Below, in pieces: positions 3,139 through 17,614 of a stretch of 55,513 nt of DNA. Every line of letters starts with the position of its first letter. Position 1 is the stretch's first letter. Source of the stretch: a virus (Duplodnaviria; Caudoviricetes); the IMG/VR virus record IMGVR_UViG_3300030090_003604, positions 1 through 55,513 of that record; one strand, 5' to 3'. A model generated the notes under the pieces. That model did no database searches. It was not told where the DNA came from and saw only the letters and a program-made list of their open reading frames with translations. The position numbers were made by a program, and so were the translations under genes.

Positions 3139-3260
3139 AAAAGCTTGCGAGTCCCTCTGTGAAAAAGTCAGCGAGTCCCTGAGAAAAAAAGCTTGCGAGT
3201 CTCTCAGAAAAAATGTTTGCGAGTCCCTTGGCAAAAAAAAAAGAACCCTAGCGAGTCCCT
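3139..3260 (+). repeat. Tandem array of GCGAGTC-core repeats, 24-bp period
   Basis: GCGAGTC at 3147, 3171, 3195, 3219, 3251 (spacing 24, 24, 24, 32), each preceded by an A tract. Confidence 0.92.
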
Positions 3261-3288
3261 TTTTAAAAAATTTTATGAAACCAGATTA

Positions 3289-3546
3289 TTAAGTTTCAAG
3301 GCAAACCTCAGTTGTTGGATCATTTTCAAACCATACTGTTCGCTCTTCTTTATTTACAAATTTATTGCCATGATAACTTTCAACTAAATCATGCACCCAC
3401 TTAGGATAATATTCTTTCCCATCTGAACTATCTAAATCATAATATGATGCATCAGAACTTAATGCATAAATACTAGATCTTAAATCTTCTAAATCTTCTA
3501 AATCGATTTCAAAAGAAATATCTACTTTAATTTTTTTATTTGTCAT
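3289..3546 (-). CDS. Hypothetical early protein
   Basis: 85-aa acidic ORF overlapping the upstream gene, GGAGG RBS. Confidence 0.65.
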   Translation of the reverse strand: MTNKKIKVDISFEIDLEDLEDLRSSIYALSSDASYYDLDSSDGKEYYPKWVHDLVESYHGNKFVNKEERTVWFENDPTTEVCLET

Positions 3547-3727
3547 TTTCTAAATCCTCCCATGTTTGTAAATCAACAGTAATTTTCCATGACATACTGC
3601 AATATTTTTCAGAATCCCACATAGATGTAGGAATTAAATGATCTGCAATAATGCGATTTATTTCTTCCATAGTTTGTTTGGAAAAATTTTTTTCAAAGTT
3701 TCTGATTTGTTTTTTTAGTTGTTTCAT
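3536..3727 (-). CDS. Hypothetical early protein (start revised to MKQLKKQ)
   Basis: GGAGG RBS upstream of the ATG at 3727; the longer track ORF overlaps the upstream gene. Confidence 0.6.
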   Translation of the reverse strand: MKQLKKQIRNFEKNFSKQTMEEINRIIADHLIPTSMWDSEKYCSMSWKITVDLQTWEDLENDK

Positions 3728-3740
3728 TTTTAATACCTCC

Positions 3741-4088
3741 TTAATCCATAGAATCATAATATTTTGCAGTTCCATCCCAAGGCTCAACTATGCCCCAATA
3801 TTTGATGTAAGCAAATTCTTGGTCTTTGCCACCACCATATTTTAAATTTTTCCAATTTTTAACACGCTTATTAAAAACAGCACCTCTTGGAACATCAACA
3901 GGAATTTTACGACCCCTTTGACCATAGCCATCATGTTCAATTAATTGGTCAGCGATCTCTTGTAACCAAACAGTTTTGTCTGTTCTTCTTACAACTTTAT
4001 AAAAAGTTGGAAGTTGCATGGTGCAACCGCCATTACAAAAAGCAATTTGTCCAACTTCAAAAGTTTTGGTTTGTTCAATAGTTTTCAT
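3741..4088 (-). CDS. Hypothetical early protein
   Basis: 115 aa; FEVGQI...FYKVVRRTDKTV; first gene after a divergent promoter. Confidence 0.7.
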   Translation of the reverse strand: MKTIEQTKTFEVGQIAFCNGGCTMQLPTFYKVVRRTDKTVWLQEIADQLIEHDGYGQRGRKIPVDVPRGAVFNKRVKNWKNLKYGGGKDQEFAYIKYWGIVEPWDGTAKYYDSMD

Positions 4089-4124
4089 AATTTTAAAAAA
4101 ATAAAAATTGTCCTGGTCTCCCTT

Positions 4125-4170
4125 ATTATAGCAATAAAACCTACTAATTTGCTAGAAATTAGGCTATAAT
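4125..4170. promoter_or_regulatory. Divergent promoter pair with a central CTAC-N7-CTAG site
   Basis: TATAAT on minus (4125-4130) and plus (4165-4170); CTACtaatttgCTAG at 4141-4155. Confidence 0.7.
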
Positions 4171-4194
4171 TAGGGAGTAGTTACACATTTAATT

Positions 4195-4683
4195 ATGACA
4201 ACAACAAAAACAAAAAGTGGTCATCCCATGAGGAAAACCAAATTTGCGATAGGCGAATGTAAAACCTTTGAAGGTTATTCGGGAGATACATATTGGAATG
4301 GATGGGACGAACCATGCTTCGATGAAAAAACTGCACAAGAGGTTATGGATTATTTTTTAAATCAAGAATGCAAAGAATCCGCAGATGGATGGAAAGAATC
4401 TTTTGAAGAAGTTCTTGATTCTGAAAACAAACTTATCTTTTCTAAATTAAGTCCAATTCATCTTGAAAATGGCGAAACTGTATACGACTTCGGTGGTGGA
4501 TACTGTTGGTCAGAAGTAGAAGACAACGAAAAAGAAGTTGTTTTGTCTTTAACAAAAAAAGCTTCTTATTCTTTGTATCAAGCACTAGATGTTTTTGTTA
4601 TGAAAAATCTAGATAATGCATGGTCAAATGATGAAAAAGATCTTTATGAAATTTTTAATACATTAAAAGAGGAGGTTAAGTAA
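4195..4683 (+). CDS. Hypothetical early protein
   Basis: 162 aa; FEGY...WNGWDEPCF...YDFGGGYCW; first gene of a plus-strand operon. Confidence 0.75.
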   Translation: MTTTKTKSGHPMRKTKFAIGECKTFEGYSGDTYWNGWDEPCFDEKTAQEVMDYFLNQECKESADGWKESFEEVLDSENKLIFSKLSPIHLENGETVYDFGGGYCWSEVEDNEKEVVLSLTKKASYSLYQALDVFVMKNLDNAWSNDEKDLYEIFNTLKEEVK

Positions 4684-5226
4684 ATGTCAAAATACGTTTC
4701 TTACGAATCTTGGGAAAAGTGTGTTTTTAAAATTCCTAATATTTCTCAACTAGAAGAAATTATGGATAAACATTGTATCTGTGATGTTCACGAAGATACA
4801 GCGAGTCTCTTAATCTTTGAAGAAGGTGGTTACATCGAACAATTTAAAGATGGCACTTATCATGTCACTTTAGATAGATCTGATATTTACGACAAAGATT
4901 TAAATGTTGTAAAACGTGCCTTATATGATTGGTGCGATGGCGAATTATTTAATTTACACAATGGATTTAAATTTGGCGAATATAAAAGTCAAAATGGATG
5001 CATTTGGGATCTCAAAGAATTTGCAATTTTATCAGATGCATGGTGTTCTTGGTTAGACAAAGAAGGTCTTCCACAATATTCCATAGAAGATTTACTTGGT
5101 ACATTCGATTGGTCAGTTGGTTATGAATTAACTGATAGTCAAAGAGAAACTGCAAGATCATTTGAAAAAATGTGGAATCTTGTAGACGATGCTTTTAATA
5201 AAAAGGAGGACTCCCCGAATGCATAA
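4684..5226 (+). CDS. Hypothetical early protein, paralogue of 5852-6226
   Basis: GGAGG RBS; GGY..E...G.Y...L...LYDWC.GE.FN block shared. Confidence 0.75.
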   Translation: MSKYVSYESWEKCVFKIPNISQLEEIMDKHCICDVHEDTASLLIFEEGGYIEQFKDGTYHVTLDRSDIYDKDLNVVKRALYDWCDGELFNLHNGFKFGEYKSQNGCIWDLKEFAILSDAWCSWLDKEGLPQYSIEDLLGTFDWSVGYELTDSQRETARSFEKMWNLVDDAFNKKEDSPNA

Positions 5227-5401
5227 CATCAAAGTTACTACAGAAGAATTGTTTGAACTAGTAGAAATGCTAGAAGACAAACTTCAATACAATCAAGATT
5301 TAATTCCTTTATATAAGAAATTAGCATCTATAGAAATTCCAAAACCTATAGAAAATTTTGATTATGAAATTCCCGAATACAAACCAAGGAGGAAAAATTA
5401 A
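5219..5401 (+). CDS. Hypothetical early protein (start revised to MHNIKV)
   Basis: AGGAGG RBS before the ATG at 5219. Confidence 0.6.
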   Translation: MHNIKVTTEELFELVEMLEDKLQYNQDLIPLYKKLASIEIPKPIENFDYEIPEYKPRRKN

Positions 5402-5598
5402 TGCCTAAAGATAAAAATGATCTAGCAATTGAATATATAAATCAAATGCTAAGTGATCAATATAGTCTTATCGAGGACAGAAAACTTGATAAAGATTATG
5501 AATCAGATGAAGAGTTAAAAGAAAGTACTGAATCTGAATTATCAGAAATCATAAATGCTCAAAGATACATGGATTTACAGACAGAGGTAAGACCATGA
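5401..5598 (+). CDS. Hypothetical early protein
   Basis: TAATG coupling, AGGAGG RBS. Confidence 0.65.
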   Translation: MPKDKNDLAIEYINQMLSDQYSLIEDRKLDKDYESDEELKESTESELSEIINAQRYMDLQTEVRP

Positions 5599-5849
5599 CA
5601 AAAAAAGTTTATGATGGCTTCACACTAAAAGAATTAGATAGTGCTTTTGATCTAATTAAATTTCCTAGTGGAGATTGGAGAGATCCTATTCAAGCAAGGG
5701 TTTTAAAAAAAGATTTAAAAGTTCTTGAAGCTTCAATTATTTATTACTGCGGTTGCGGTTTTAGTTCAGTAAAAAAAGATAACCAAGATGCTTGGGATGA
5801 ATATTACTACATCAAAGCAGATGGTTATTACTTATCTATGGTGCATTAA
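5595..5849 (+). CDS. Hypothetical early protein
   Basis: ATGA coupling; DWRDPI...AI.YY.G...ADGYY pattern. Confidence 0.7.
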   Translation: MTKKVYDGFTLKELDSAFDLIKFPSGDWRDPIQARVLKKDLKVLEASIIYYCGCGFSSVKKDNQDAWDEYYYIKADGYYLSMVH

Positions 5850-5851
5850 AA

Positions 5852-6226
5852 ATGACAAAAATCACATTTGAAGAATGGAGAAAAAATTACAAAGACATTC
5901 CATTCTTAGAAGAAAATTTTACAGAATTAAAAGATTCTGGAGTAGACGTTGGATTTATGAAGGAAAGAATGGAATATGTCATTTATCCAAAAATAAAATA
6001 TGTGCGAGTCTTTTTATATGGTGGATATTATGAAATTGATGAAGAAGGTATGTATGATTTAATTTTAGAAAATCATTGTTGGAGCGAAAAAACTACAGAT
6101 GTTGTTGATAAAGAATTATATGATTGGTGCAATGGAGAATACTTTAATACAGAAAATGATCCATTTGGATTAGAATCTGTTACCGATAATGACTATGACG
6201 AAAACGGAAATTGGAGGCACGAATAA
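5852..6226 (+). CDS. Hypothetical early protein, paralogue of 4684-5226
   Basis: Shared conserved block, operon position. Confidence 0.7.
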   Translation: MTKITFEEWRKNYKDIPFLEENFTELKDSGVDVGFMKERMEYVIYPKIKYVRVFLYGGYYEIDEEGMYDLILENHCWSEKTTDVVDKELYDWCNGEYFNTENDPFGLESVTDNDYDENGNWRHE

Positions 6227-6408
6227 TGCTTATCAAATCAACAGACAAAGAAGGCACATTTACTTGTGATGAAGAAGGAAGAAAATTAATTGATTTAATT
6301 GATTCCTTATGGTGGGGACGAGATCGGTGGGATAGTTCCACAGAAAAAGTTATGAATGAAATTGCAGATTTATTAGGTATGGGAGAAGAAGAAGAAGAAG
6401 AAGAATAA
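6226..6408 (+). CDS. Hypothetical acidic protein (start revised to MLIKST)
   Basis: TAATG coupling with GGAGG RBS; poly-Glu tail. Confidence 0.6.
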   Translation: MLIKSTDKEGTFTCDEEGRKLIDLIDSLWWGRDRWDSSTEKVMNEIADLLGMGEEEEEEE

Positions 6409-6427
6409 AATTTTTATAGACAAAAAA

Positions 6428-6646
6428 TTAGGACTCTTGCGAGTCCTTTTTTGTAAGTTTGGCAACTGCTTCCTCTAATAGTAAGGTTGCGAGTCCTGTA
6501 GGTTTCATATCCTTAAATTTAGAGAACTCGATATTTGTTTCACTTCCACAAGTGGGACAAATATTAGTTGATGATTTTTTTGTTAATGTTTCCAGCTGCT
6601 CATAACACTCGTCAGAAATACGAATGTTAAACTGTCTTTTTTGCAT
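6428..6646 (-). CDS. Putative ribbon-helix-helix regulator with a CxxC insert
   Basis: QFNIRISDECYEQLETL strand-helix pattern; CPTCG. Confidence 0.55.
   Translation of the reverse strand: MQKRQFNIRISDECYEQLETLTKKSSTNICPTCGSETNIEFSKFKDMKPTGLATLLLEEAVAKLTKKDSQES
6430..6452 (+). terminator. Terminator of the plus-strand early operon
   Basis: AGGACTC-ttgc-GAGTCCT followed by a T tract; contains a GCGAGTC motif. Confidence 0.7.
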
Positions 6647-6667
6647 TACTGCGAGTCCTCCGAGTCT

Positions 6668-6913
6668 TTAATAAGGGTTGTTGTTGTTGAAGAAAAAATC
6701 GTCAGATTTTGCTCCTTCCTGGTACGCTAAAATTTTTAATTTTTTAACGATTCCATTGATAGTACTCAGATTAAGAAATCTGAGTTTATCTTCTGGTCTT
6801 GCTTCTCTTTCAATGTGTAAAACATGACGTAGCAAGTCCTCCAGCTGATCATGTTCCAATTTGGATAAACCAAGTTGGAAAATTTCTTGTGTTTGCGAGT
6901 CTTTTAAGTTCAC
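6668..6913 (-). CDS. Hypothetical protein
   Basis: 81 aa, GTG start overlapping the upstream stop. Confidence 0.6.
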   Translation of the reverse strand: MNLKDSQTQEIFQLGLSKLEHDQLEDLLRHVLHIEREARPEDKLRFLNLSTINGIVKKLKILAYQEGAKSDDFFFNNNNPY

Positions 6914-7086
6914 TCCTCATCCTCCTCATAATCGTAAGTTGGTTCTGGTTCTTCTGTTAATTCAACATCAGCCCATGTATATTGTTTAATGCACTCGACA
7001 AAATCTACGAGTGCATCATTGCTTTTTTCATCAAAATCATTAGATGTATTAGTGATACATTGATCTACAAATTCATAAAGTTTCAT
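6910..7086 (-). CDS. Small acidic protein (58 aa, not in ORF track)
   Basis: Hand translation MKLYEFVDQC...YDYEEDEE*; GGAGG RBS, coupled at both ends. Confidence 0.65.
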   Translation of the reverse strand: MKLYEFVDQCITNTSNDFDEKSNDALVDFVECIKQYTWADVELTEEPEPTYDYEEDEE

Positions 7087-7348
7087 TTAGTTACCTCCTT
7101 TGAAAAATAATCATGCAACTCATTAATGTGAGTTTGTAAGTCTAAAAGACAATCGCCTATCGAAATGCTTGAACCTTCCCAATCTTTTGGAATATCCATT
7201 AATGTTTTCGGTTCTTCTTCAAATTGACTTTCATCATATTCTTCTATGATGTCATCATTGATTGAATGACCTTTTATTGTTTCAACAACATCATTAATGT
7301 TGAATAACATATTTGCCATGTAATCTCTGTTCATTTAGTTACCTCCTT
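7082..7348 (-). repeat. Identical 19-bp RBS/stop/start junction repeat (2 copies)
   Basis: TTCATTTAGTTACCTCCTT at 7082-7100 and 7330-7348; both upstream genes end KEVTK*. Confidence 0.8.
7083..7334 (-). CDS. Hypothetical acidic protein
   Basis: 83 aa, coupled by ATGA overlaps. Confidence 0.65.
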   Translation of the reverse strand: MNRDYMANMLFNINDVVETIKGHSINDDIIEEYDESQFEEEPKTLMDIPKDWEGSSISIGDCLLDLQTHINELHDYFSKEVTK

Positions 7349-7711
7349 AAATGGGTTTGTTTGTCTGTAGCTGAAATAATTAGATTCATTATCTTGTGGC
7401 AAAATAATTCCAAGGCAAGGATCTTCTTGCCTTAGATATAAATGTACAGGTACTTTATTTGACTCTAAATAAATTCCCAAATGTTTATAAATATCTTCGG
7501 GAAAATCATCAGCAGAATCATAATCATAAAATCCACTTTTGTTGTAGATATAAACTGATCTTGTTCCACAAGAATCTACATTCGTAAGAACACCTAAAGA
7601 AAATTTTGCCATATAAGTATTATTGAAATTATCAATAAAATCTTCATGTGGACGATTATCATCTTTATCGGTAGATCCGATAATTAATGTAATTGGTCTA
7701 GGTTTTGTCAT
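7331..7711 (-). CDS. Hypothetical protein
   Basis: 126 aa, TAATG coupling, GGAGG RBS. Confidence 0.65.
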   Translation of the reverse strand: MTKPRPITLIIGSTDKDDNRPHEDFIDNFNNTYMAKFSLGVLTNVDSCGTRSVYIYNKSGFYDYDSADDFPEDIYKHLGIYLESNKVPVHLYLRQEDPCLGIILPQDNESNYFSYRQTNPFKEVTK

Positions 7712-8118
7712 TATGCAACCTCCTCTTTAATATCATTTGTTGCATAACCTTCGATTCTTTTTGCAAGTGGTTCTATTAATGGATCATAATGTCCATCCTC
7801 ATCTTCTTTTTTCTCCCAATTACTAATATAATCATGTACAAACTTATATCCCTTTTCTCTTTTTTGATCCCAATTAAGATCATCCCAACCTTCTGTTTTT
7901 TCTAACTCTTTGTTTTTCTCCATCTGCTCTTTTTCTTTTGCAGTATATTCATCGGTATGAACTCTTTCTACACAGATCTGGTCATCTGAAAACAAGTAGT
8001 CCAGACCTCTTCCATAACATAAGTAATTCATGTCAGATAAACGTCTGTTATCTGCTTTAGCAATTCTGGAAAGCAGATCATAGTCTCTATCAGAAACTAA
8101 GATTTCAATTTTTTTCAT
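7711..8118 (-). CDS. Hypothetical protein with RHH-like N-terminus (start revised to MKKIEIL)
   Basis: KIEILVSDRDYDLLSRIAKADNRRLSD pattern; the longer start overlaps the promoter. Confidence 0.55.
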   Translation of the reverse strand: MKKIEILVSDRDYDLLSRIAKADNRRLSDMNYLCYGRGLDYLFSDDQICVERVHTDEYTAKEKEQMEKNKELEKTEGWDDLNWDQKREKGYKFVHDYISNWEKKEDEDGHYDPLIEPLAKRIEGYATNDIKEEVA

Positions 8119-8142
8119 AATAATAAATGAATGTACCCCCTT

Positions 8143-8172
8143 ATTATAGTTCATTTCCTAGCAAATTACTAT
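8143..8172 (-). promoter_or_regulatory. Promoter: TATAAT -10 plus CTAG-N7-CTAT site
   Basis: ATTATA at 8143-8148; CTAGcaaattaCTAT at 8158-8172. Confidence 0.6.
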
Positions 8173-8175
8173 CTT

Positions 8176-8952
8176 TTATTCTGGATTTTTCCATTCCTTA
8201 ACAGCAATCGCCCAATCGGGTGCAATACTATCCGAACCTAATTCTGCTTGTAATTTATGGCTATTAACTTTAACTACCAATCCATCTGTTGGATATCTTG
8301 AAAAAATTAAACTATCTAACCAATCATTATGTAAAATTTTTACTTTCTTTAAAACATAAGTTGCTATGCGTACATGACCACAAACATGAAATCCTAAACA
8401 TAATAATTCTTGTAAGGTATCAACTTCATATCCACTATCTCTACCGATAACTTCAAAAGCACAGAATGCGAGTCCTTCTCCTGTAGGACATTTCCTCCTC
8501 ATGTGTCCCGCTGCAAGTCTTTGACTTTTACTATGTCCAGTTAATCCATAAACTTCTCCTCTTATTTCTATAGAATCTAAATAATTTATTTGCTGTGGAA
8601 CATTACTAACTTTTCTCATTGCATAAGTAATATCTTTTCCTTTTCTATTCCAAGCCTTAACAAGTCTTCCATATTTATATCTAAGAGCTACAGCACAACC
8701 ATCTATCTTTGGTTCGACTATCACTTCTGTATTATGTGGCAAGTCTTTATACCAATTTTCAAAAGGTTGATTACCTAAAGAAAGAAGATGTGTACCTCCT
8801 CCAGGAGAAAGTAATATTGGATGATCAGGTGCTATATCTACTAATTCTGCTCTTAATTTATCAAACTCTAAATCAGACACTAAAGGATTACCAGCTCTAT
8901 ATGCTTCATCTAATAATTGTATTTTGTTTGCTAATTCTTCTACGTTAGTCAA
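8176..8952 (-). CDS. NAD-dependent DNA ligase, adenylation domain only
   Basis: Domain Ia AY..G.P.VSD.EFD, motif I EPKIDG, EIRGEV, TDGLVVKVN, WAIAVK; ends before the OB/Zn/HhH/BRCT domains. Confidence 0.85.
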   Translation of the reverse strand: MTNVEELANKIQLLDEAYRAGNPLVSDLEFDKLRAELVDIAPDHPILLSPGGGTHLLSLGNQPFENWYKDLPHNTEVIVEPKIDGCAVALRYKYGRLVKAWNRKGKDITYAMRKVSNVPQQINYLDSIEIRGEVYGLTGHSKSQRLAAGHMRRKCPTGEGLAFCAFEVIGRDSGYEVDTLQELLCLGFHVCGHVRIATYVLKKVKILHNDWLDSLIFSRYPTDGLVVKVNSHKLQAELGSDSIAPDWAIAVKEWKNPE

Positions 8953-8988
8953 AAGAATAAATACTTGCTACTAATATCCTAGCATTAT

Positions 8989-9783
8989 CTAATAAGGTTT
9001 GCCCGCTTTATTTACATTTTTCCTTAAAAATCTAGGTAACTCTCTTTTTGCTATTGCTGAAATCTGCACTCCAAAAGATTGTTTTGGTTTTATTTTTGGA
9101 GTTTTTACAAATGCAAATAATGGTCTAACAAATTCTTTGTTTTTATCTAACACCATTCTATATATACCCGCTTCGAGTCTTTTATTTTTACTTTCCCCTT
9201 TATAACGAACTGCAAATGTTCTTCCTTGATGTATCAACTCTCCTTTTCCTTTTCTTTTCTTACCTTTAAATTTACCTTTTCTAGTATTAGACAAACCCCA
9301 AATTGTATTTCTATAAATTGTAGGTTTAACATTACCAAAAGCATTTAATTGTATATCAGTTGTATTTCTCAAGTTAGCTACAGGATATTCATCTTTACTC
9401 ATGTAATTTTTATTTCTAAGATATTGAACAAATCTGGTTGGATATGGTTCAGTAGAACCACCACCAATTACTGGGTATAAATATTTTGAGGGAGCATTAC
9501 TTTTTTTTTCTTTATTGTATAAATAAAAATCAACTTCATTTTTTCTAGGTTTATATAAGACACTATCTTTTGTTAAGTCTACAGGTTGTCTAAATTTATT
9601 TTTTCCTTTTTGAAAATTATAAGGCAAACCTTTTTTTGAAGGATCATTTGTAGAACCACCACGAGCAATAAAATAACCTAATTCTTCTGCTGTTAAATAA
9701 ACTGCATTTCTTAACGATTTAGGATTATATTTATCAAAATTCTTTATAAACTTCTTCGCATTAAATGTTACTTTAGTTGCCAT
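8989..9783 (-). CDS. Basic protein, possibly tail-completion/neck (gpZ-like)
   Basis: Lys/Arg-rich, LNAFGNV and GIYR motifs as in siphophage neck proteins; no gpZ in the structural block. Confidence 0.4.
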   Translation of the reverse strand: MATKVTFNAKKFIKNFDKYNPKSLRNAVYLTAEELGYFIARGGSTNDPSKKGLPYNFQKGKNKFRQPVDLTKDSVLYKPRKNEVDFYLYNKEKKSNAPSKYLYPVIGGGSTEPYPTRFVQYLRNKNYMSKDEYPVANLRNTTDIQLNAFGNVKPTIYRNTIWGLSNTRKGKFKGKKRKGKGELIHQGRTFAVRYKGESKNKRLEAGIYRMVLDKNKEFVRPLFAFVKTPKIKPKQSFGVQISAIAKRELPRFLRKNVNKAGKPY

Positions 9784-9841
9784 AATTTTTATCAATTAAA
9801 GTAATTAAATACAGTATAGCAAGTCTTCATTTTTTGAGACT

Positions 9842-10051: not shown

Positions 10052-12193
10052 TTATATAGAAATGGTGTCCGAGTCTCGAATGTAGACCCATTTGCGACTA
10101 CCTCTCCCTCCTCTGCGTTTTTTAACGAGTCCCAAGTCTCTTAAAATTGATGCAATTTGCATTTGATCTCCTCTGGTTTGTCGTTCAATTGGTTTTTCAA
10201 TTGCTTCTGTAAGTACGACCTCTGTTGTTAACTCACGACCCCTATTTTTTGGTTCATTTATATAACTTTCTATGACAGATTTCCAAGGACTATCTATTAA
10301 ATATTGAATGTTTTCGTTATTAATTATTGATTCAGATTCGCTATCTAAAACCCAAGGCTCATGATTATGATAAGCAGAAACAACAGAACTCCAAAGCGAG
10401 TCTCTTTCATCAACTAAACCTTTAATATCAATTTGATCATTAATATTTTTAGTAGTTGGAATAATCCAAAACCTTCTTGATCCAGTATCATCTATTAACA
10501 ATCCATCTGTCTTATTACTAGTCCCTACTATTATTCCTCTTCTTTTAAATACTTCTGTTGATTTTCCATATGGCACTCTAAAAATATCTGTGGCTTGTGA
10601 TAAAAATGCTTTTACTTCTCCAGCCTGTTTTCTTGTGGTCAAGTAATCCATTTCGGAGAATTCCATAATCCAACTGCGGTGTAGTACCATCAACGAGTCT
10701 TTGTTTGATATATCTTTTAAAGCATCAGAAAAAAAAGCACCTCCAAGCTTCTCCCAAAAAGTACTTTTTCTAGCTCCTTGTTTTCCAACAATAATGCAAC
10801 AGTTATCAAACTTACAGCCAGGTTCAAAAACACGAGCTACTGCTGCGATTAAGGTGCATTTCAACATTTTATCGTAAATTGTAGGAGCAATATCTTTATC
10901 TTCGGGTCTTAAATATGTTGTTGCCAGCTCATCTATATAAGTATGTTCAACAGTAGCAGAAACGTGTTTTAAATATTCTTTAACAGGATCATATTCATTT
11001 TCTCTTGCTGCTTGCACAACACAATCAAAAGCTAAATCTTTTGATACTTTTATTCCTTTATCTGCAAGTTTTAAATAATATCTTTCTAACGAGTTTTCTC
11101 CTTCACAAACTTCTTTTCCTTCTTCTATCTGTTGAGTAAAAATATTATATCTGAATGGATTATCTCCTTTATTTTTTTTCCTTAGTTGCTCCATTAATTG
11201 ATTTGCTTCCATTTTTTGTAATGGTTGTTTTTCCATTACAGTAATCTGATCAGGATTTTCTATACTTTTTATCTCTACAAGTTTTGGTGGATTATATCCA
11301 GATTCTCGTGCGAGATACCAAAAAGTCCCTGCCTCAATTTGAGAACCTCCAGATTTTGCAATCTGTTCAATACCACCCCATTGAGGAGAATGTTGTTGCA
11401 TTAAAGATATTGCATCGCTTGAAGATCTATTTGCATCATTGCAAGCTTTTATAAGTCCCCATAATAAATTCCGATAATAATCGTAAGTACCAGTTCCAGG
11501 TACACGAGGAGGAATGCAGTTTAGTGCTTCTTTTATATCCTCAAAAGTGCCTTTTCTATATTCTTTAAATTGTTTACTTTTTTTTATTTTTTCTGTTTGT
11601 ACTTTATCGGGCAAACAATCTTCTATATCTTTAACAGTATATTTTTGATCACATGAGTTAATGATTTTAGTCATCTCTCTTTTTGTGCCATCATCTCCCA
11701 TATGAAAAGTTCCTGGAAGACGCATAACTCGTGATGGATTTTTTAAAGCCCTGTCAGCATCTGCATAATCTAGTAATCTTTCTTGAATAGGTCGCCAAGT
11801 CTTCGGATCTATTGTCTTTTTTAAAACCCAATAATTATGAATAGATTTACCTCCTGTATCTATCTGAAGAGTTGGTTCTTTAAGACCTAAAGTTCTCCAC
11901 AAATCGACCTGTTCGGATTTTGGCCTATCGTCCCATTCAACAAACAGCGCTCGGCAACCTGTTATTTCACTATCTGTATCACCACCATCATTCACTACAA
12001 CATAAACACCTCTACCTTCTATCTGACATTGTGTAATCCAATCAATATCTGCATTCGATTTTTTACCACGATCAGTATTTTTAAGAGGATGTCCTTTAGG
12101 ATAAAAAGAACGTAATCTTACTGTATTTTTATCTTTGCCAAGAATTTTGAGGAAAGTCCTCCATTGCAACTTATCAAGTTTTAAGTCAGACAT
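10052..12193 (-). CDS. Primase-helicase (RepB-like primase + PriCT-2 + VapE-type helicase)
   Basis: FVEWD, TGGKSIHNYW, NPSRVMRLPG; Walker A GKQGARKST, WIMEFSE, RVPYG, DDTGSRRFW. Confidence 0.88.
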   Translation of the reverse strand: MSDLKLDKLQWRTFLKILGKDKNTVRLRSFYPKGHPLKNTDRGKKSNADIDWITQCQIEGRGVYVVVNDGGDTDSEITGCRALFVEWDDRPKSEQVDLWRTLGLKEPTLQIDTGGKSIHNYWVLKKTIDPKTWRPIQERLLDYADADRALKNPSRVMRLPGTFHMGDDGTKREMTKIINSCDQKYTVKDIEDCLPDKVQTEKIKKSKQFKEYRKGTFEDIKEALNCIPPRVPGTGTYDYYRNLLWGLIKACNDANRSSSDAISLMQQHSPQWGGIEQIAKSGGSQIEAGTFWYLARESGYNPPKLVEIKSIENPDQITVMEKQPLQKMEANQLMEQLRKKNKGDNPFRYNIFTQQIEEGKEVCEGENSLERYYLKLADKGIKVSKDLAFDCVVQAARENEYDPVKEYLKHVSATVEHTYIDELATTYLRPEDKDIAPTIYDKMLKCTLIAAVARVFEPGCKFDNCCIIVGKQGARKSTFWEKLGGAFFSDALKDISNKDSLMVLHRSWIMEFSEMDYLTTRKQAGEVKAFLSQATDIFRVPYGKSTEVFKRRGIIVGTSNKTDGLLIDDTGSRRFWIIPTTKNINDQIDIKGLVDERDSLWSSVVSAYHNHEPWVLDSESESIINNENIQYLIDSPWKSVIESYINEPKNRGRELTTEVVLTEAIEKPIERQTRGDQMQIASILRDLGLVKKRRGGRGSRKWVYIRDSDTISI

Positions 12194-12209
12194 TAATTTT
12201 GTGGTGGTA

Positions 12210-12566
12210 TTAACTTAGGGACAAAATATTGAAAACATCTTTAATGCTTCTGGCTACTCCTGTAATGCCCCCAGATTTATTGATGAAGTTAAGCCAATTG
12301 TTTTGTTGAGGTGTAAGTTTGCCTTTTTCTGTTTTTATTTCTATTGAGACAAACTGTGCGATTTCTTGTCCAATCATGTCTTCGGTAATTTTTATTTTCT
12401 TAAAACCGATAAGATCAGAAGAACCTTTAGCTAACCCGAACTGAACGTATCTTCCTGTTCTTGGGTCGGGAAGTTGCCCCACTTGATTACGAAAAAGGCG
12501 AAGAGTTGGTATCTTGCCGATTGCAAGTCGGATTTCCTGTTGAAGCTTAGTTTCATTGTTGCTCAC
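12210..12566 (-). CDS. VRR-NUC nuclease
   Basis: E..LQ..I, FGLAKGSSDLIG, IEIKTEKGKLTPQQ..W. Confidence 0.85.
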   Translation of the reverse strand: MSNNETKLQQEIRLAIGKIPTLRLFRNQVGQLPDPRTGRYVQFGLAKGSSDLIGFKKIKITEDMIGQEIAQFVSIEIKTEKGKLTPQQNNWLNFINKSGGITGVARSIKDVFNILSLS

Positions 12567-13557
12567 GCTCCAATTGTATAACCCTTTGCAAGGGTATAGC
12601 TGCGACAGCTGGCACTATCGTGTTTCCGAGTTGCTTGAGTCTCTGAATTCGTTGACTTGCGTCCAATTTATTGGATAACCCATCATCTCCTCTACGAATC
12701 GTGGGTTGAGATATGTATTGTCTCCAGTTTGGGTTAAGACGTCTGATATTCTGCGTTTTCCATGTCGGTCTATAAATCCTTGACCCGACCTTCCCTTGTA
12801 ATCCGTTGCTGTCGGGGTTGGAAGAATTGATACTGCATCTCTCAGTTTTACTCCCCATCTGACTCCCTCTTTGTTTTCCCTGTAAAAAGTTTCGTTCTTG
12901 TATTGAACATCCTTCACCACTCCCCCCTCCACATCCGATGCTCTCGGTGTTGGAAGCATTGGATATTTTTTCGTTGGAATTCCTATTTGTTTGCATATCC
13001 CCTCCTTTAGATTGTCTCCATAACCTAGATTCGTCCTTCCAGGTTCGCTTGCTCTCGGAGTTGGAAGAAAATCCAAGCAACCACCAGCGATCCCTTTGAT
13101 GGCAAGCTCCAACAAAGCTGCTTGGTATACAACACCATTCTGCATCGTACCCTGCCTCGAAAATGTCTCGGAGAACGATGTCCATTCCGTTAGTAAGGAT
13201 CGCTGATACGTTTTCCAAGATGAAGTATTTTGGTCGTACCATGCGTATGGTTCTGATGAGTTGAAACCAGAGACCAGATTTTGAAGTCTCCGTGATGCCT
13301 TCCCTATGTCCTGCCTGTGAGATTGATTGACATGGAAATCCCCCAGTGATAACGTCTGCTGAATATGGTTTGGCTCTGTAGGTTGTGATGTCATCGTGAA
13401 TAGGAATGTTTGGAAAATTTTTGTTTAGTACTTGTTGACAGTATGGATCAATTTCTATGAACTGTACTGTTTCAAATCCACCTACAAGGTTTTCTGCAGC
13501 GTAACTAAAACCGCCAATCCCTGCAAATGTATCTAGAAGTCTTAATTTTTTTGTCAT
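12553..13557 (-). CDS. dcm: DNA cytosine-5 methyltransferase, alpha-like subunit (motifs I-VIII and X)
   Basis: DTFAGIGGF, GGFPCQ, ENV, HQRDRW, LKQLGNTIVP. Confidence 0.9.
   Translation of the reverse strand: MTKKLRLLDTFAGIGGFSYAAENLVGGFETVQFIEIDPYCQQVLNKNFPNIPIHDDITTYRAKPYSADVITGGFPCQSISQAGHREGITETSKSGLWFQLIRTIRMVRPKYFILENVSAILTNGMDIVLRDIFEAGYDAEWCCIPSSFVGACHQRDRWWLLGFSSNSESKRTWKDESRLWRQSKGGDMQTNRNSNEKISNASNTESIGCGGGSGEGCSIQERNFLQGKQRGSQMGSKTERCSINSSNPDSNGLQGKVGSRIYRPTWKTQNIRRLNPNWRQYISQPTIRRGDDGLSNKLDASQRIQRLKQLGNTIVPAVAAIPLQRVIQLEREQQ
12615..13394 (-). CDS. Nested alternative-frame methyltransferase beta-like subunit (TRD + motif IX)
   Basis: 259-aa ORF inside dcm; three LPTP(R/T)A(S/T)(D/E) repeats and LNPRFVEEMMGYPINWT. 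Confidence 0.8.
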   Translation of the reverse strand: MTSQPTEPNHIQQTLSLGDFHVNQSHRQDIGKASRRLQNLVSGFNSSEPYAWYDQNTSSWKTYQRSLLTEWTSFSETFSRQGTMQNGVVYQAALLELAIKGIAGGCLDFLPTPRASEPGRTNLGYGDNLKEGICKQIGIPTKKYPMLPTPRASDVEGGVVKDVQYKNETFYRENKEGVRWGVKLRDAVSILPTPTATDYKGRSGQGFIDRHGKRRISDVLTQTGDNTYLNPRFVEEMMGYPINWTQVNEFRDSSNSETR

Positions 13558-15284
13558 GTTATAAAACCTGTGGGATCTTCATTTTTAGGCCATTTTTTCT
13601 GATTACAAGCCATCACAAAATTATTTATAAAATCAATATCCCATTCATAACGTACCATTTCTTCAAATAAACTTTTATTTAAATCTTTTTTTTCTTTCTC
13701 GCATTTAATAAATTTCCAAATGTCATTGACTTTTGTTTGCTGTAAATCCTCCCAAATAAAAGCAAAAGAATTTTGTTTTTTATCTGAATAATGTTCTTTA
13801 AATTTTTGATAAGCTAAAAAATTATTAACAAACAATTTTGCAACTCTTTCTTTTTGTACCATAGGTAAATTAGCTTTTTTAGGATTTATAATTTTATTTT
13901 TATGAAATATAGGTTTATGTTTTCTTGATTGATGTACTTTATAAGCCCAACCCTTTTTGTAGCCAAGAATTTGTGCTACTTGTTCTAATTCTTCTAAAGT
14001 TCTTGCACTTCTAATTAATTGTTCTTTCTGTTTATGTTCTGTTTCTTTTCTTTTAAGTTCTTCTAGTTCTCCCTCTTCTTGTTTTATAAATCTTTCTCTG
14101 TTTTGTGCTTCATAACCACAAACTGGACATACAGGTGTTGGTTTATATGTAGCGAAACATTTTTTGCAAGTCTCTACATGAGGAACAACAACACCTTTTT
14201 TCTTTTTTTTCTTTTTTGAATGTAATGACCAATCTTTTTTATCGTCAACAAAACCATGAGTTCTTGTGCTGTTTACATGATCTAAAATTATTGCGGTCTT
14301 ACCAGGTTTTGGTCTTAAAACTCTTCCTACTTGTTGTAAATATAACCCTTCAGATTTTGTTGGTCGAAGGAGAATCGCTGCTGATACATCTGGAACATCT
14401 GTGCCTTCTGAGATAACATCAACTGATGTAAGAATTTGTATTTTTCCGTTTCCAAGTCCTTTAATTGCTTCATCACGATCTCCTACTTTCATCTCACCAT
14501 GAACTATAGCAGCTTTATAACCAGCATCTTTAAATTTATTACAAACATCGGTTGCGTGTTTTATTGAAATACAGAATGCGATAGCGGGTAAACCATCTGC
14601 GTGTTTTTTATATTGTTGTACAGCATCTCCAATAATATCAACACTATCTATTTGTTTTTCTAAATCTTTTTTCTGATAATCTCCACCTAAAGTTTTGACC
14701 CGATCAAGATCTAATTTTAATGGAGGAGCAAATACTTTATATGGTGCTAGATACTTATCTTCTATAAGTTGTGCTACTCCAGGGCCTAAAACTAAATCAT
14801 CAAAAAAATCAGCTAAACCTTTGCCATCAAGTCTTATTGGTGTTGCAGTACATCCAATTTTGAATGCTTGACAAGTATTATCGTAATAATCAAGAATTTT
14901 CTGCCAACTACCAGCTGCTGCGTGATGTGCTTCATCAATAATTATATAGTCGGGAAAAAAATCAATATGAACAAGTCTTCTTACTAAAGTTTGTACTGAT
15001 GCTATTTGTATATTATTTTTCTTAGGTTTATATTTTGCAGCAATAATTCCATGTTTTACACCTATAGTTTTTAATTTTTTTGATGCTTGATCAATAAGCT
15101 CTCTTCTATGAACAAGAATTAAAACATTTTTTTTATTATCTGATATAGATTTTGATATAGAAGCAAAGACAACAGTTTTACCAGCTCCAGTTGGCATTAC
15201 TAAAAGTGGAGCTTTTTTCTTATGTATATGAATAGAATCTCTTAAGTTTGAAATTGCTTTGGTTTGATAACTTCTTAACTGCAT
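13554..15284 (-). CDS. Superfamily 2 DNA helicase with Zn ribbon
   Basis: LRSYQ, PTGAGKT, DEAHH, TATP, EGTDVP, QQVGRVLR; CKKC...CPVC. Confidence 0.9.
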   Translation of the reverse strand: MQLRSYQTKAISNLRDSIHIHKKKAPLLVMPTGAGKTVVFASISKSISDNKKNVLILVHRRELIDQASKKLKTIGVKHGIIAAKYKPKKNNIQIASVQTLVRRLVHIDFFPDYIIIDEAHHAAAGSWQKILDYYDNTCQAFKIGCTATPIRLDGKGLADFFDDLVLGPGVAQLIEDKYLAPYKVFAPPLKLDLDRVKTLGGDYQKKDLEKQIDSVDIIGDAVQQYKKHADGLPAIAFCISIKHATDVCNKFKDAGYKAAIVHGEMKVGDRDEAIKGLGNGKIQILTSVDVISEGTDVPDVSAAILLRPTKSEGLYLQQVGRVLRPKPGKTAIILDHVNSTRTHGFVDDKKDWSLHSKKKKKKKGVVVPHVETCKKCFATYKPTPVCPVCGYEAQNRERFIKQEEGELEELKRKETEHKQKEQLIRSARTLEELEQVAQILGYKKGWAYKVHQSRKHKPIFHKNKIINPKKANLPMVQKERVAKLFVNNFLAYQKFKEHYSDKKQNSFAFIWEDLQQTKVNDIWKFIKCEKEKKDLNKSLFEEMVRYEWDIDFINNFVMACNQKKWPKNEDPTGFIT

Positions 15285-15288
15285 AGGG

Positions 15289-15317
15289 TTGCACGAGATG
15301 TTTCTAGGGTATATGAT
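15289..15317 (+). promoter_or_regulatory. Sigma70-type promoter for the recombination operon
   Basis: TTGCAC-N17-TATGAT in the divergent gap. Confidence 0.55.
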
Positions 15318-15349
15318 ACGACTATAAACGACAAGCCCTTTATTAATAA

Positions 15350-15619
15350 ATGGACAAAAAAGATCAAAGAATTAACGTTACTTTATTTTCAACACTTGAA
15401 TATGAAATGGTTAAAGCATTAGCTACATTGCATGGGACTTCATTATCTATGGTTGTTGCTAAAGGTTTTAGTGAATGGCTAAAAAAAAATTTTATTATTG
15501 AGTTGGAATCATATCGTGATGCAGAAATATATTTAAAAAAAATGAATAGAACTGCTCCTATAGATAATTTATTCTACAAAGATAAAAATGGTTTTTATCA
15601 ACCTTGGAGAAGTGAATAA
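15350..15619 (+). CDS. Putative ribbon-helix-helix regulator
   Basis: QRINVTL...EYEMVKALA...GTSLSMVV. Confidence 0.55.
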   Translation: MDKKDQRINVTLFSTLEYEMVKALATLHGTSLSMVVAKGFSEWLKKNFIIELESYRDAEIYLKKMNRTAPIDNLFYKDKNGFYQPWRSE

Positions 15620-16446
15620 TGTATAAACCCTTGGTAATGAGCAATGCAGAATATCATTCAAAGAAAGACTATGAGTCTTCCAGTAGTATTCGTGATGCAT
15701 TATTAAATCCTAAAAAATATATTTTTAGAAAAACACATGAAACTGTTCCAACAAAATCAATGGAAGAAGGAACTGCTGTTCATTCATATTTTTTAGAAAA
15801 CGATAAATTTAAAAAAAATTATGTATTTAAACCGAAAGCATTTAATGGAAGAACAAAAGAAGGCAAAGAATGGATGCAAGAACATGGTCATCTAAATATA
15901 TTAGGTGCTGAATGGGAAGAAAATCTTATTCAGATGAATCATAATTTTTTAAATAGCCCTGCAAAATTTATCTACGATAACGAAGGATTAGCGGAATTAA
16001 GCTTTTTTTGGGATGATATATACAAAATTAAGGGTAAATGTAGACCAGATTGGCTTTCCGTTAATGGAAATACAGTAGTTGATTTAAAAACAACAAAAGA
16101 CGCAAGTCCTAAAAGTTTCCAAAGATCTATAAGTGAATTTGGATATCATATACAAGCAGCATGGTATCTAAGAGGTTTAAGAAAACTAGATATACCAGCA
16201 AAAGAATTTATTTTTATTGCAATAGAAAAAACAGCACCATATTGTATTGGAGTTTATAGAGCAGATGAAGAGATGATAGTTGCTGGTATGAGTGAGGTTG
16301 ATAAATCATTAGAAGTATTAAAGATGTGTCAAGAAACAAAACTCTATCCAGACTACACACCGACCATACAAGATATTAGTCTTCCTCCTTGGATGACTAA
16401 TAAAAAGGTCACACCACAAAACTACCAGGAGATTCAACTTTACTAA
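15619..16446 (+). CDS. RecE/ExoVIII-like PD-(D/E)xK exonuclease
   Basis: MSNAEYH, SSS, GTAVH...LE, KCRPD, VDLKTT, YHIQAAWY, FIAIEK. Confidence 0.88.
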   Translation: MYKPLVMSNAEYHSKKDYESSSSIRDALLNPKKYIFRKTHETVPTKSMEEGTAVHSYFLENDKFKKNYVFKPKAFNGRTKEGKEWMQEHGHLNILGAEWEENLIQMNHNFLNSPAKFIYDNEGLAELSFFWDDIYKIKGKCRPDWLSVNGNTVVDLKTTKDASPKSFQRSISEFGYHIQAAWYLRGLRKLDIPAKEFIFIAIEKTAPYCIGVYRADEEMIVAGMSEVDKSLEVLKMCQETKLYPDYTPTIQDISLPPWMTNKKVTPQNYQEIQLY

Positions 16447-16586
16447 TGAAAATCGAATTTGATTACAAACAAGGAGAGTGGATACAACTTAAGTCGTATC
16501 TATTTCCATACCTTAATAAATCAGAACTTGTACAAGATTTTGTAAAAAAGGTAAATACAAAAACAAGGTTGAGGTCAGTTAAATGA
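16446..16586 (+). CDS. Small hypothetical protein (46 aa, not in ORF track)
   Basis: Hand translation MKIEFDYKQGEW...; TAATG and ATGA coupling. Confidence 0.6.
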   Translation: MKIEFDYKQGEWIQLKSYLFPYLNKSELVQDFVKKVNTKTRLRSVK

Positions 16587-16795
16587 ATATAGAAGAACGT
16601 CTTAATAATCTTGAAAAAGGTTATAAACAACTTTGTCAATCACATGACAGAAACAAACACGCACATTTATTAACAGCAAATTCCATGCATCATGTTAATA
16701 AAAACTTTAAAGAAATTAGAGATTTAATTGAAGCACAACAAAAAATTAATTTAGGAATTTTAAGTAAATTACAAGATTTAGAGGATAAAAAATGA
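16583..16795 (+). CDS. Hypothetical coiled-coil protein
   Basis: 70 aa, coupled on both sides. Confidence 0.65.
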   Translation: MNIEERLNNLEKGYKQLCQSHDRNKHAHLLTANSMHHVNKNFKEIRDLIEAQQKINLGILSKLQDLEDKK

Positions 16796-17427
16796 CATCT
16801 GAAATTACAACAACATCTATAGAAAATGAGTCTTCTATATATCACAATGCTGATAGCTTCGAGTTTGCACAAAAACAAGCAAAAAGTTTAGCAGATTCAC
16901 AACTTGTACCAAAACAATATCAAGGCCAACAAGGTTTATCTAATTGTTTGGTAGCACTTGAGATGAGTAAAAGAATGAACCTTAGTCCACTAACTGTTAT
17001 GCAAAATTTAAATGTTATACACGGCAAGCCATATTGGTCAGCACAATTCATTGCATCCACCATAATGTCGTGCGGTAGATTTTCTAACTTTGACTATTTA
17101 GTAAAAGGTCAAGGAGATACATTAGAAGTACAATGTGTTGCCACCAGGCTTGAAGATAAAAAGCAAGTTAAAGGCACAGCAGTTTCTATGGCTATGGCTA
17201 GACAAGAAGGATGGGCTGCAAGAAACTCAAAATATTCTTCGATGCCAGAAGTCATGTTGAGGAGTCGAGCAGCTACATTTTTTGGTAGGCAATATATTCC
17301 TGACTTGTTATTAGGTGTGCAAACTAGTGAGGAAGTGGTAGATATAGAGTCAGAACCTATAAACGTATCCGAGTCCTCGGTACGAATCGAACCACAACAG
17401 GAGGATGAAAATGACATTGGATTCTAA
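16792..17427 (+). CDS. RecT-like single-strand annealing protein
   Basis: LVPKQYQG, LSPL.VMQNL.VIHGKP, PEVMLRSRA.TFFGR..PD.LLG..T.EE; near the RecE-like gene. Confidence 0.75.
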   Translation: MTSEITTTSIENESSIYHNADSFEFAQKQAKSLADSQLVPKQYQGQQGLSNCLVALEMSKRMNLSPLTVMQNLNVIHGKPYWSAQFIASTIMSCGRFSNFDYLVKGQGDTLEVQCVATRLEDKKQVKGTAVSMAMARQEGWAARNSKYSSMPEVMLRSRAATFFGRQYIPDLLLGVQTSEEVVDIESEPINVSESSVRIEPQQEDENDIGF

Positions 17428-17614
17428 AGATGAATTTATTACAAGCATGGAACTTGCTGAACGATGGCGAGTCCATGCAGATACTGTTGAACGATGGAGA
17501 AGGCAGGGCAAACCTCCTTCTTTCTATTCCATCAATGGAAAGATCCTCTATAAGGTGGCTGAGATAGAGGAGCTAGAACTAGCCAAACGTCAAAATTCAC
17601 AATTAACACAATGA
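17405..17614 (+). CDS. Excisionase-like HTH protein
   Basis: ITSMELAERWRV..DTVERWRRQGKPP.F..I.GKILY. Confidence 0.75.
   Translation: MKMTLDSKDEFITSMELAERWRVHADTVERWRRQGKPPSFYSINGKILYKVAEIEELELAKRQNSQLTQ

Follow-up and report, generated by a model that had tools for sequence, protein, structure and literature searches.

Since the 1960s, phage DNA has been known to carry localized, strand-specific nicks, whose function was still unexplained when two papers (PMC3517423, PMC3384331) were written, according to their available text, and what is said below of either paper is limited to that text. In phage tf, 14 nicks occur at the consensus TACTRTGMC, all copies of which lie on one strand with 11 of the 14 in one genome half, and tf and the LUZ24-like phages have about 9–14 copies each, with similar positions and a variant consensus in relatives (PMC3517423). 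The same paper cites T5 and phiKMV-like phages for nicks confined to one strand and quotes R/GCGCRGG as the T5 nick consensus. In HRPV-3, strand-specific interruptions were found at GCCCA, with doublets and one triplet (PMC3384331). Here we describe a polar word in a stretch of DNA called the window, which is the whole of the IMG/VR virus record IMGVR_UViG_3300030090_003604 (55,513 bp, 33.7% GC). The word, GCRAGTCYT with the core CRAGTCY, is repeated on the + strand of the early half of the genome, in an array and as scattered copies, in a family of marine siphoviruses with lambda-like structural genes and a PrimPol-helicase.

Like the tf/LUZ24-like consensus, the word is an asymmetric 9-mer on one strand (41 copies of the core against 2) that is crowded in one genome half (34 of the 41), is kept in position among relatives (132 of 162) and has a variant in some of them (the IMG/VR loci L129 and L130). 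It differs in its sequence, in its carriers, which are unrelated to tf (here a siphovirus with a PrimPol-helicase), in its larger number of copies (34–70) and in its tandem arrays of 8–32 bp spacing, which the available text on tf does not describe; nicks were seen in tf, whereas here there are words alone. The likeness to T5 consists of one-strand nicks there and a polar word here, together with a homologue here of the T5 ligase subunit A, while T5 has a different consensus, few major nicks, no arrays and a split ligase with a subunit B that was not detected here. A short word also precedes the strand-specific discontinuities of HRPV-3, with a polar distribution and doublets or a triplet (PMC3384331), but polarity there tracks transcription switches and the lesions are short gaps, whereas here the strand of the word ignores transcription. 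At the level of sequence, all the features that the available text gives for the nick consensus of tf, T5 and phiKMV are reproduced here. A literature search for a counterpart returned only primer hits or the papers on nicks cited here, and no description of one in siphoviruses was found.

Counts, controls and layout of the word

The initial annotation had listed 14 copies of GCGAGTC on the + strand, and each coordinate proved exact: the count is 14:0 (+:−), with 0.91 expected on both strands and 5 as the largest of 100 dinucleotide shuffles. The six additional CGAGTC sites that it gave (6661, 9174, 10070, 10126, 10694 and 17370) were also right and bring CGAGTC to 20:0, against 4.65 expected on both strands and a largest shuffle value of 12; every copy of either word falls within 3147–17473, and an exact count found zero GACTCG on the + strand, as had been noticed by eye. 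As a definition, however, the word was too short and too strict. When the sequences around the 20 sites were inspected and strand-asymmetric k-mers were sought without bias, CAAGTCY turned out to behave as CGAGTCY does; the relaxed core CRAGTCY occurs 41:2 in the window, and 34 of the 41 copies lie in 3148–24273, in place of the 20 sites counted before. Across 171 isolated sites in eight divergent genomes the profile reads G(61%)-C-R-A-G-T-C-Y-T(67%) with no signal outside it, and the selected unit is 8–9 nt, GCRAGTCYT. Bare GAGTC (54 against 52.7 expected) and GANTC (149 against 163.8) are not enriched in the window, so the selected unit is larger than either. This leads to the rejection of a bare recognition site, be it for a type IIS or nicking enzyme (PleI, MlyI or Nt.BstNBI for GAGTC) or for GANTC methylation (by CcrM), also because the equally polar CAAGTC contains neither sequence.

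In a codon-preserving control, which the initial annotation had proposed, synonymous codons were shuffled gene by gene 1000 times with the array excluded, and the observed counts were never reached. Between 3290 and 25000 there are 15 CGAGTC against a shuffle mean of 3.57 (largest 8) and 29 CRAGTCY against 8.05 (largest 17). The + gene blocks alone hold 7 copies against a mean of 1.52, and the − block 6668–15284 alone holds 18 against 4.19, each value being reached by 0 of 1000 shuffles. Additionally, the sites of the window occupy all three reading frames and genes of both orientations, as had been claimed, and the separate enrichment in + and − genes bears out the earlier view that selection acts on the DNA and not on the protein. 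Chance, base composition and codon bias are ruled out as causes by the two kinds of shuffle, and the word is a real, selected, strand-specific cis-element that is independent of the direction of transcription. One strand of the early half, with its replication and recombination genes, carries about 1–2 copies in each kb. The stoperators of mycobacteriophage L5 are similar in number, asymmetry and uniform orientation: dozens of asymmetric sites, each about 13 bp long, serve a single phage protein and are spread genome-wide in one orientation. Their orientation, however, tracks the direction of transcription, whereas the word lies always on the same DNA strand, enriched in + and − blocks alike, with densities over the eight divergent genomes of 1.16 per kb in + open reading frames (ORFs), 1.42 in − ORFs and 2.09 in non-coding DNA.

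Other early claims fared less evenly. That the structural half lacks copies stands for CGAGTC, absent beyond 17473, and not for the relaxed word, which has 7 copies in 25001–55513 against 4.3 expected from codon-preserving shuffles, without enrichment. A density that declines away from the array is better described as nearer a plateau over about 3–19 kb, and a spreading of the motif from the array finds no support in that form, the isolated sites being individually conserved without any flanking signal. The central proposal of a directional DNA signal is upheld by the codon-shuffle enrichment, by the orthologous positions and by the polarity of 25 of 31 low-GC relatives described below. The array and the sites of the enriched zone are as follows (relatives are cited as L for loci and G for whole records).

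3069–3084, +, hairpin TAGTAC-N4-GTACTA followed by a T run, conserved
3085–3146, +, T/A tracts with repeated TTTTGAGA units, adjoining the array on its left
3147–3258, +, array of five GCGAGTCY, starting at 3147, 3171, 3195, 3219 and 3251 (gaps of 24, 24, 24 and 32 bp)
4802–4808, +, CGAGTCT, within the + gene 4684–5226
6005–6011, +, CGAGTCT, within the + gene 5852–6226
6440–6446, +, CGAGTCC, one arm of the two-way terminator hairpin 6430–6447
6490–6496, +, CGAGTCC, within the − gene 6428–6646
6652–6667, +, tandem pair at 6652 and 6661 (9 bp apart), covering the ribosome-binding region of gene 6428–6646
6833–6839, +, CAAGTCC, in the − gene 6668–6913
6896–6902, +, CGAGTCT, in the − gene 6668–6913
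8469–8475, +, CGAGTCC, in the ligase gene
8514–8520, +, CAAGTCT, in the ligase gene
8661–8667, +, CAAGTCT, in the ligase gene
8740–8746, +, CAAGTCT, in the ligase gene
9174–9180, +, CGAGTCT, in gene 8989–9795
9820–9826, +, CAAGTCT followed by TTTTTTGAGAC, at the left edge of the origin-like locus
10070–10076, +, CGAGTCT, at the right edge of the origin-like locus and the 3' end of the primase gene, kept in L125, L169 and L177
10126–10139, +, CGAGTCC (10126) and CAAGTCT (10133), in the primase gene
10397–10403, +, CGAGTCT, in the primase gene
10694–10700, +, CGAGTCT, in the primase gene
11796–11802, +, CAAGTCT, in the primase gene
14167–14173, +, CAAGTCT, in the SNF2-type helicase gene
14453–14459, +, CAAGTCC, in the SNF2-type helicase gene
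14828–14834, +, CAAGTCT, in the SNF2-type helicase gene
14972–14978, +, CAAGTCT, in the SNF2-type helicase gene
16103–16109, +, CAAGTCC, in the + strand exonuclease gene
17370–17376, +, CGAGTCC, at the 3' end of the RecT gene, 35 nt ahead of the HTH_17 gene
17468–17474, +, CGAGTCC, in the HTH_17 gene, forming with 17370 a 98-bp pair kept in L121–L124 and L128
18735–18741, +, CAAGTCT, in the + gene 18696–18974
24273–24279, +, CAAGTCT, in the + gene 23508–24320, the final site of the enriched zone

The array of the window is non-coding and lies between the − strand ORFs 2506–2721 and 3289–3546. In the clade of the window, arrays come after TTTTGAGA repeats and the TAGTAC-N4-GTACTA hairpin, and TTTTGAGA units also precede the arrays of L121, L123, L125 and L126. 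Arrays consist of head-to-tail units, in relatives mostly 8–9 bp apart (L169, L177, L183, L189, L207 and G006), compared with 24 bp in the window. The spacings recorded in relatives are 24; 16, 16 and 29 (L125); 32, 17, 28 and 47 (L126); and 8, 8, 9, 9 and 8 (L169), with ten copies 7–8 bp apart in G006 and multiples of 8 bp in L207/G007. The commonest distances between successive sites, counted over distinct contexts, are 8–9, 16, 24, 28 and 32 bp. The array lies 2–4 kb from the start of terS in the four genomes in which both were located (the window, G001, G006 and G007), and in L210 (53% GC) two copies of the word follow an AT-rich island of about 230 bp. Pairs 9 bp apart also stand at the place matching 6652/6661 in L121, L122, L124, L125 and L126.

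Two observations concern the surroundings of these sites. The hairpin 6430–6447 (AGGACTC-TTGC-GAGTCCT) is a two-way terminator between convergent gene blocks, one arm of which is the polar word. The very AT-rich block 1–3050 (20–23% GC), which separates the array from the terS junction, carries small − strand genes, among them that of a GP88-family protein (209–1054). The block closes with a terminator (186–169) and contains zero copies of the word.

Polarity, conservation and exchange of the word in relatives

The primase and a primase profile retrieved 50 and 80 IMG/VR loci, and 53 family loci were analysed (L121–L130, L169 and L177–L218), which are fragments, are mutually related and in some cases are near-identical and not independent. 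Over the 503,730 bases of the 31 low-GC loci, CRAGTCY occurs 787 times forward and 56 times reverse, and the word read backwards, used as a control, occurs 48 and 49 times; one orientation is selected, and the opposite one is neither favoured nor avoided. With polarity defined as at least 10 forward copies and at least four times the reverse count, 25 of the 31 low-GC loci are polar, and the six below the cut-off are L129, L130, L191, L185 (6:0 in 2.2 kb), L187 (9:1 in 5.4 kb) and L207 (26:8). Among whole records the counts are 70:1 in G006 (control 3/3), 41:6 in G008, 35:13 in G007, 22:8 in G010, which has 53% GC, and 13:7 in G009. The 10 mid-GC loci are modestly polar, with 75:29 in total (L203 10:0, L210 17:4 and L212 13:2), and the 12 high-GC loci form a clade without the word.

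In the high-GC loci L193–L201, L204–L206 and L208, CRAGTCY was counted 5 times forward and 37 times reverse against about 70 for the control, which is probably an effect of coding-strand bias. Polar 7-mers of high-GC relatives (CTTGCCG, CAGGTAG and others) were rejected because they resemble coding-strand bias, having no flanking conservation and appearing as their complements where genes turn.

A search of related genomes, as suggested initially, found the polar motif at orthologous positions: in alignments with seven close relatives, 132 of 162 comparisons keep the site of the window, where control 7-mers predict 62.7. In L129 and L130, which are without CRAGTCY, GCAAGAAC is used instead (CAAGAAC 14:0 and 8:0) in a matching layout, namely an intergenic array followed by copies through the early genes. 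The complete record G001 carries GCAAGAAC 19 times forward and 5 times reverse, with 14 of the forward copies in 27367–40846. In a quick maximum-likelihood tree of the primase, read without the rows L128 and L130, L129 falls within the CRAGTCY clades as sister to L191 plus L198. Judged from these sequences, one sublineage swapped the word for GCAAGAAC and retained the layout.

In the complete records behind L198 and L210 (G008 and G010) the primase module is retained together with the polar word, but the large terminase (TerL) of the window has no detected homologue there, and the packaging module of these records appears to have been exchanged. Since the word persists over 30–53% GC and with a different large terminase, and since one sublineage switched it, we infer a phage-encoded reader.

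Candidate functions and the proteins that may read the word

We give a rough probability of 0.3 to the reading that the words are programmed one-strand nick sites, as in T5, phiKMV-like and tf/LUZ24-like phages. It draws on analogy and on the occurrence of a T5-type NAD-ligase subunit A only in word-bearing clades. One strand of the phage DNA would be cut at the words before or during packaging, giving localized single-strand nicks, and these would be sealed after entry by the ligase subunit of the phage; the tandem copies of the array would yield a hinge with multiple nicks or gaps, about 3 kb inside one end of the genome, and the end bearing the hinge would, on the lambda paradigm, be packaged last and injected first. 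The features that enter this and the competing readings are the following.

6428–6646, −, RHH2, a candidate reader of 72 aa with an N-terminal Q-x-N-x-R/K stretch, two helices and a CPTCG knuckle
8176–8952, −, NAD-dependent DNA ligase of 258 aa, adenylation part only, a homologue of the T5-type subunit A
8989–9795, −, basic protein of 268 aa whose nearest Atlas clusters are partly annotated with DUF6441, adjoining the primase gene in every clade
9796–10066, no strand, origin-like locus, 270 bp of non-coding DNA between gene 8989–9795 and the primase gene
10052–12193, −, PrimPol/VapE-type primase-helicase of 713 aa

The ligase fragment is about 28% identical to T5-type subunit A over 98% of its length and matches 674 phage records. 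Among the matches listed (25 of the 674), most are enterobacterial or Vibrio phages of 108–128 kb annotated as 'NAD-dependent DNA ligase (subunit A)', and one Demerecviridae record has subunits A and B adjacent. The ligase profile has a match in the window, in 25 of the 31 low-GC loci and in 5 of the 10 mid-GC loci, where most of the unmatched loci do not reach the position concerned, and it matches 0 of 12 high-GC loci and 0 of 5 high-GC records (one of them 96% complete). As to the ends of the genome, the junction just upstream of terS is the start or end of the contig in L123, L125 and the complete G006, as in the window, and the records G001 and G007 are permuted; this junction would be a physical genome end. 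In lambda, packaging starts on the Nu1 side and the opposite end is injected first. If the same holds here, the half rich in words would be the last part to be packaged and the first to be injected.

Several points weigh against nicking. Neither the window nor the ORFs of the loci yielded a homologue of ligase subunit B, and no nickase (HNH, GIY-YIG or other) appeared in Pfam and PHROG scans of a subset of ORFs, in which the only nucleases were the VRR-NUC protein and the PDDEXK exonuclease, with many small ORFs left without a family; both of these nucleases also occur in the wordless clade. The co-distribution of ligase and word amounts to one clade split, a single evolutionary event, and so counts as weak, and for RHH2 and ligase together the correlations rest on one or two such events. 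Because the reverse word stands at background and is not avoided, avoidance of double-strand breaks cannot explain the polarity. Additionally, the available text on known nick words reports doublets and at most one triplet, and no long arrays of 8–9 bp units, and the association of RHH2 with the word is explained no less well by binding sites.

An iterated RHH2 profile found the protein in the window and in 22 loci, all of them low-GC and carrying the word, and did not find it in L129, in the complete GCAAGAAC record G001, in L192 or in any mid-GC or high-GC locus, several short loci not covering the expected region by their coordinates. The N-terminal Q, N and R/K residues, which persist down to 27–36% identity, and the CPTCG knuckle are conserved. 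The predicted model has a mean pLDDT (predicted local distance difference test) of 74.5, with an extended N-terminus followed by two helices. Foldseek found no match for it in the PDB, and the profile run against PDB sequences gave only zinc-knuckle matches and a TraM row at E=1. RHH2 may be a ribbon-helix-helix protein, a fold that none of these matches confirmed. Other candidates for the reader or specificity factor were rejected: the C5 methyltransferase is missing from the word carriers L169 and L127, RHH1 (7711–8154) is sporadic, with only 10 sources, and the DUF6441-like protein (8989–9795) occurs in every clade including the wordless one.

A wider version of the nicking scheme, which we regard as doubtful, is that of a phage 'one-strand address', in which a word on the half that is probably injected first would be read by a small protein and coupled to a ligase subunit, giving a break-and-seal system. 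The reader would be RHH2 in most members and would have been replaced when the word changed; together with the B-less T5-type ligase subunit it would make and seal programmed interruptions, the array forming a hinge near the leading end. If true, this would be a site-specific break-and-seal cycle of virion DNA with nameable components. To our knowledge, the components of such a cycle have never been named for the nicks of T5, phiKMV and tf.

The origin-like locus matters for the remaining readings. GTGTCCAAC iterons flank its AT-rich core, direct at about 9842, 9860, 10006, 10017 and 10032 and inverted at 9971. Analogous loci with other iterons occupy the same position in L125, L169, L177 and L129, and in the high-GC clade three GTTCCCA precede an AT-rich core that is followed by three AGGAACA, with 8–9 bp between copies. 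The iteron sequence varies by lineage (GTGTCCATAG, CCTACC/GGTAGG, GTTCCCA/AGGAACA), whereas the position is constant. Single polar sites (9820 and 10070 in the window) flank the locus in several lineages, and the strand of the word does not change across it, with the array and 14 sites on the left and 15 sites on the right, which speaks against a skew of the lagging-strand or KOPS type (FtsK-orienting polar sequences) in a bidirectional replicon.

The words could instead be sites of a small sequence-specific DNA-binding protein, best represented by RHH2, that would coat the head-to-tail 8–9 bp units of an array and act at a single GCGAGTCCT site as an orientation-dependent roadblock or recruitment point, which we consider rather unlikely. 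MetJ, omega and ParR bind tandem repeats in this way (8-bp metboxes, 7-bp heptads and iterons, respectively), and the arrays resemble such operators and centromeres in their head-to-tail units of 7–9 bp, in the small candidate protein nearby and in the site pair before its own gene. The contiguous 8–9 bp words of the relatives' arrays, the dominance of 8–9, 16, 24 and 32 bp spacings and the 9-bp word pair over the ribosome-binding region of the RHH2 gene all agree with it, as do the profile matches, which beyond the window are confined to word-bearing low-GC loci and do not include G001, the complete GCAAGAAC genome, the conserved N-terminal residues and the extended N-terminus and two helices of the model. 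However, a symmetric binder of double-stranded DNA cannot explain 787:56 across both gene orientations, isolated sites lie mostly inside genes and not at promoters, and the one-strand dispersal through genes over a whole genome is unlike the known ribbon-helix-helix arrays. Nor does the protein accompany the word everywhere, as would be expected of a cognate binder, since L192 (17:1), L203, L210 and L212 carry the word without a match to RHH2, whose fold was confirmed neither by Foldseek nor by the PDB profile search. Control of an exonuclease by Chi-like sites is, in our view, unlikely. A nuclease, either host AddAB/RecBCD or the PDDEXK enzyme of the phage, would enter at the terminase-free cos end (position 1) and meet the array and then back-up copies, and the sites would stop or pause resection and favour RecT/RecA-mediated repair. 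The orientation of the sites with respect to the terS junction is uniform in the window and in G001, G006 and G007, in which the array is also the first cluster from that end; the variable array spacing suits sites that act independently, and the phage encodes a DUF3799/PDDEXK exonuclease and RecT. Chi and the lambda Exo pause sites are likewise short words acting from one side, here oriented relative to a cos end, and the strand- and sequence-specific pausing of lambda Exo at GGCGATTCT, with a GGCGA core, is a precedent for a phage exonuclease in the available text of PMC7496540. By contrast, the CAAGTC and GCAAGAAC variants have no GGCGA-like core, and the word is kept over 30–53% GC, probably in different hosts, and was switched in a phage-specific manner, against a host-specific Chi. 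Moreover, the exonuclease is also present in the wordless clade, the co-distribution with the ligase goes unexplained, and the cos ends of the window are themselves something that we infer.

Replication offers further readings. As template sites at which the PrimPol-helicase starts synthesis on the + strand (complementary- or lagging-strand initiation), the words would be inherently strand-specific, and defined template words are read by PrimPols, namely 5'-TTTGGTTA-3' and GTG by that of NrS-1 and GTG by ORF904 of pRN1, according to the available text of PMC8718748. Among the ORFs scanned there is no separate DNA polymerase, and sites flank the origin-like locus that adjoins the primase gene. 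Nevertheless, this appears quite unlikely, since the 31-kb structural half is unenriched and would leave most of the genome without start sites, the strand change expected of bidirectional lagging-strand sites at the origin-like locus does not occur, and the primase of the high-GC clade is 53–54% identical and yet has no word. A comparison for co-variation of iterons and initiator found no primase region that diverges specifically in the word-switched L129, which also speaks against priming. That the array is the replication origin of the primase-helicase, with iterons and an AT-rich unwinding element and with the scattered copies as secondary loading or titration sites, is a very improbable reading: the array adjoins AT-rich T-tract DNA, and the two copies of L210 follow an AT-rich island, but the locus at 9796–10066 is the better candidate, adjoining the primase gene with inverted iterons of another sequence around an AT-rich core and keeping its position in every clade, including the wordless one. 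The organization of P4 alpha and of Rep in Staphylococcus aureus pathogenicity islands (SaPI), with iterons and AT-rich DNA near the initiator, fits 9796–10066 and not the array, which lies 6.8 kb away from the primase gene. The array probably does not serve as the origin of the primase, and if it did, the polarity of the scattered copies would still lack an explanation. Least credible of all is KOPS-like guidance, during entry or packaging, of a double-strand translocase, whether the SNF2 protein of the phage, the terminase or a pump of the host; for this we know of no phage precedent. The uniform polarity over about 21 kb whatever the transcription and the encoded SNF2-type ATPase would suit it. 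The KOPS option of the initial annotation, understood as a replication-tied skew, is disfavoured by the same strand on both sides of 9796–10066, where KOPS and SpoIIIE recognition sequences (SRS) would switch strand between replication arms, and its option of a packaging signal by G008 and G010, which keep the polar word without a detectable homologue of this TerL; SNF2 is also found in the wordless clade, and half of the genome lacks the word.

Whatever the outcome for nicking, each genome of the family has dozens of sites, many relatives are sequenced and the word has undergone a natural switch. With the co-varying candidate genes for a small DNA-binding protein and a T5-type ligase subunit, the question of nicks comes within reach of comparative genomics and simple biochemical tests. 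Should nicking prove wrong, the words remain a directional signal under strong selection that ignores both transcription and the presumed origin.

Genome content and minor observations

The structural genes are lambda-like and run on the − strand from 55512 down to 24317, encoding the small terminase (TerS), TerL, portal, capsid, tape measure and a J-like tail protein. The early half encodes the PrimPol/VapE primase-helicase, VRR-NUC, the SNF2-type helicase, a C5 methyltransferase, the PDDEXK exonuclease (DUF3799/PDDEXK), RecT and the HTH_17 protein (17405–17614), as well as the 258-aa NAD-ligase adenylation fragment and the DUF6441-linked protein, and several small early proteins resemble ribbon-helix-helix proteins by eye. 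The protein 8989–9795 evolves fast, and its constant adjacency to the primase suggests an unrecognised replication accessory protein. The C5 cytosine methyltransferase gene and two 2OG-Fe(II) oxygenase genes lie at 12553–13557, 18974–19624 and 21808–22386, and the methyltransferase is missing from the relatives L169, L127, L129 and L130.

Scans of the window with Rfam and for tRNAs found no RNA family and no tRNA, and megablast of 2500–12500 against a phage collection gave no match. Parts of the sequence 2500–11500 are present in marine metagenome runs of 9 studies, four runs containing 82–89% of the words sampled from that region, and a TerL search of genome contigs found only relatives with 47–55% TerL identity in assorted metagenome-assembled genomes.

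An IMG/VR scan for two GCGAGTC 17 nt apart, which says nothing on the generality of the word since records were selected for it, returned mostly unrelated 12-bp and 8-bp tandem repeats. The contig L012 (IMG/VR, 73 kb, 33% GC) has 12-bp-periodic GCGAGTNCC arrays of single orientation in at least 6 intergenic gaps between same-strand genes; the phage is apparently unrelated to the window. No window protein matched it at E 1e-3, and its whole record had no match to either RHH query. L047, an 11-kb viral contig of 47% GC, carries 26 contiguous 8-bp GCGAGTCC units at 1445–1651 in the orientation analysed and also encodes a homologue of the SNF2-type helicase that is 30% identical.

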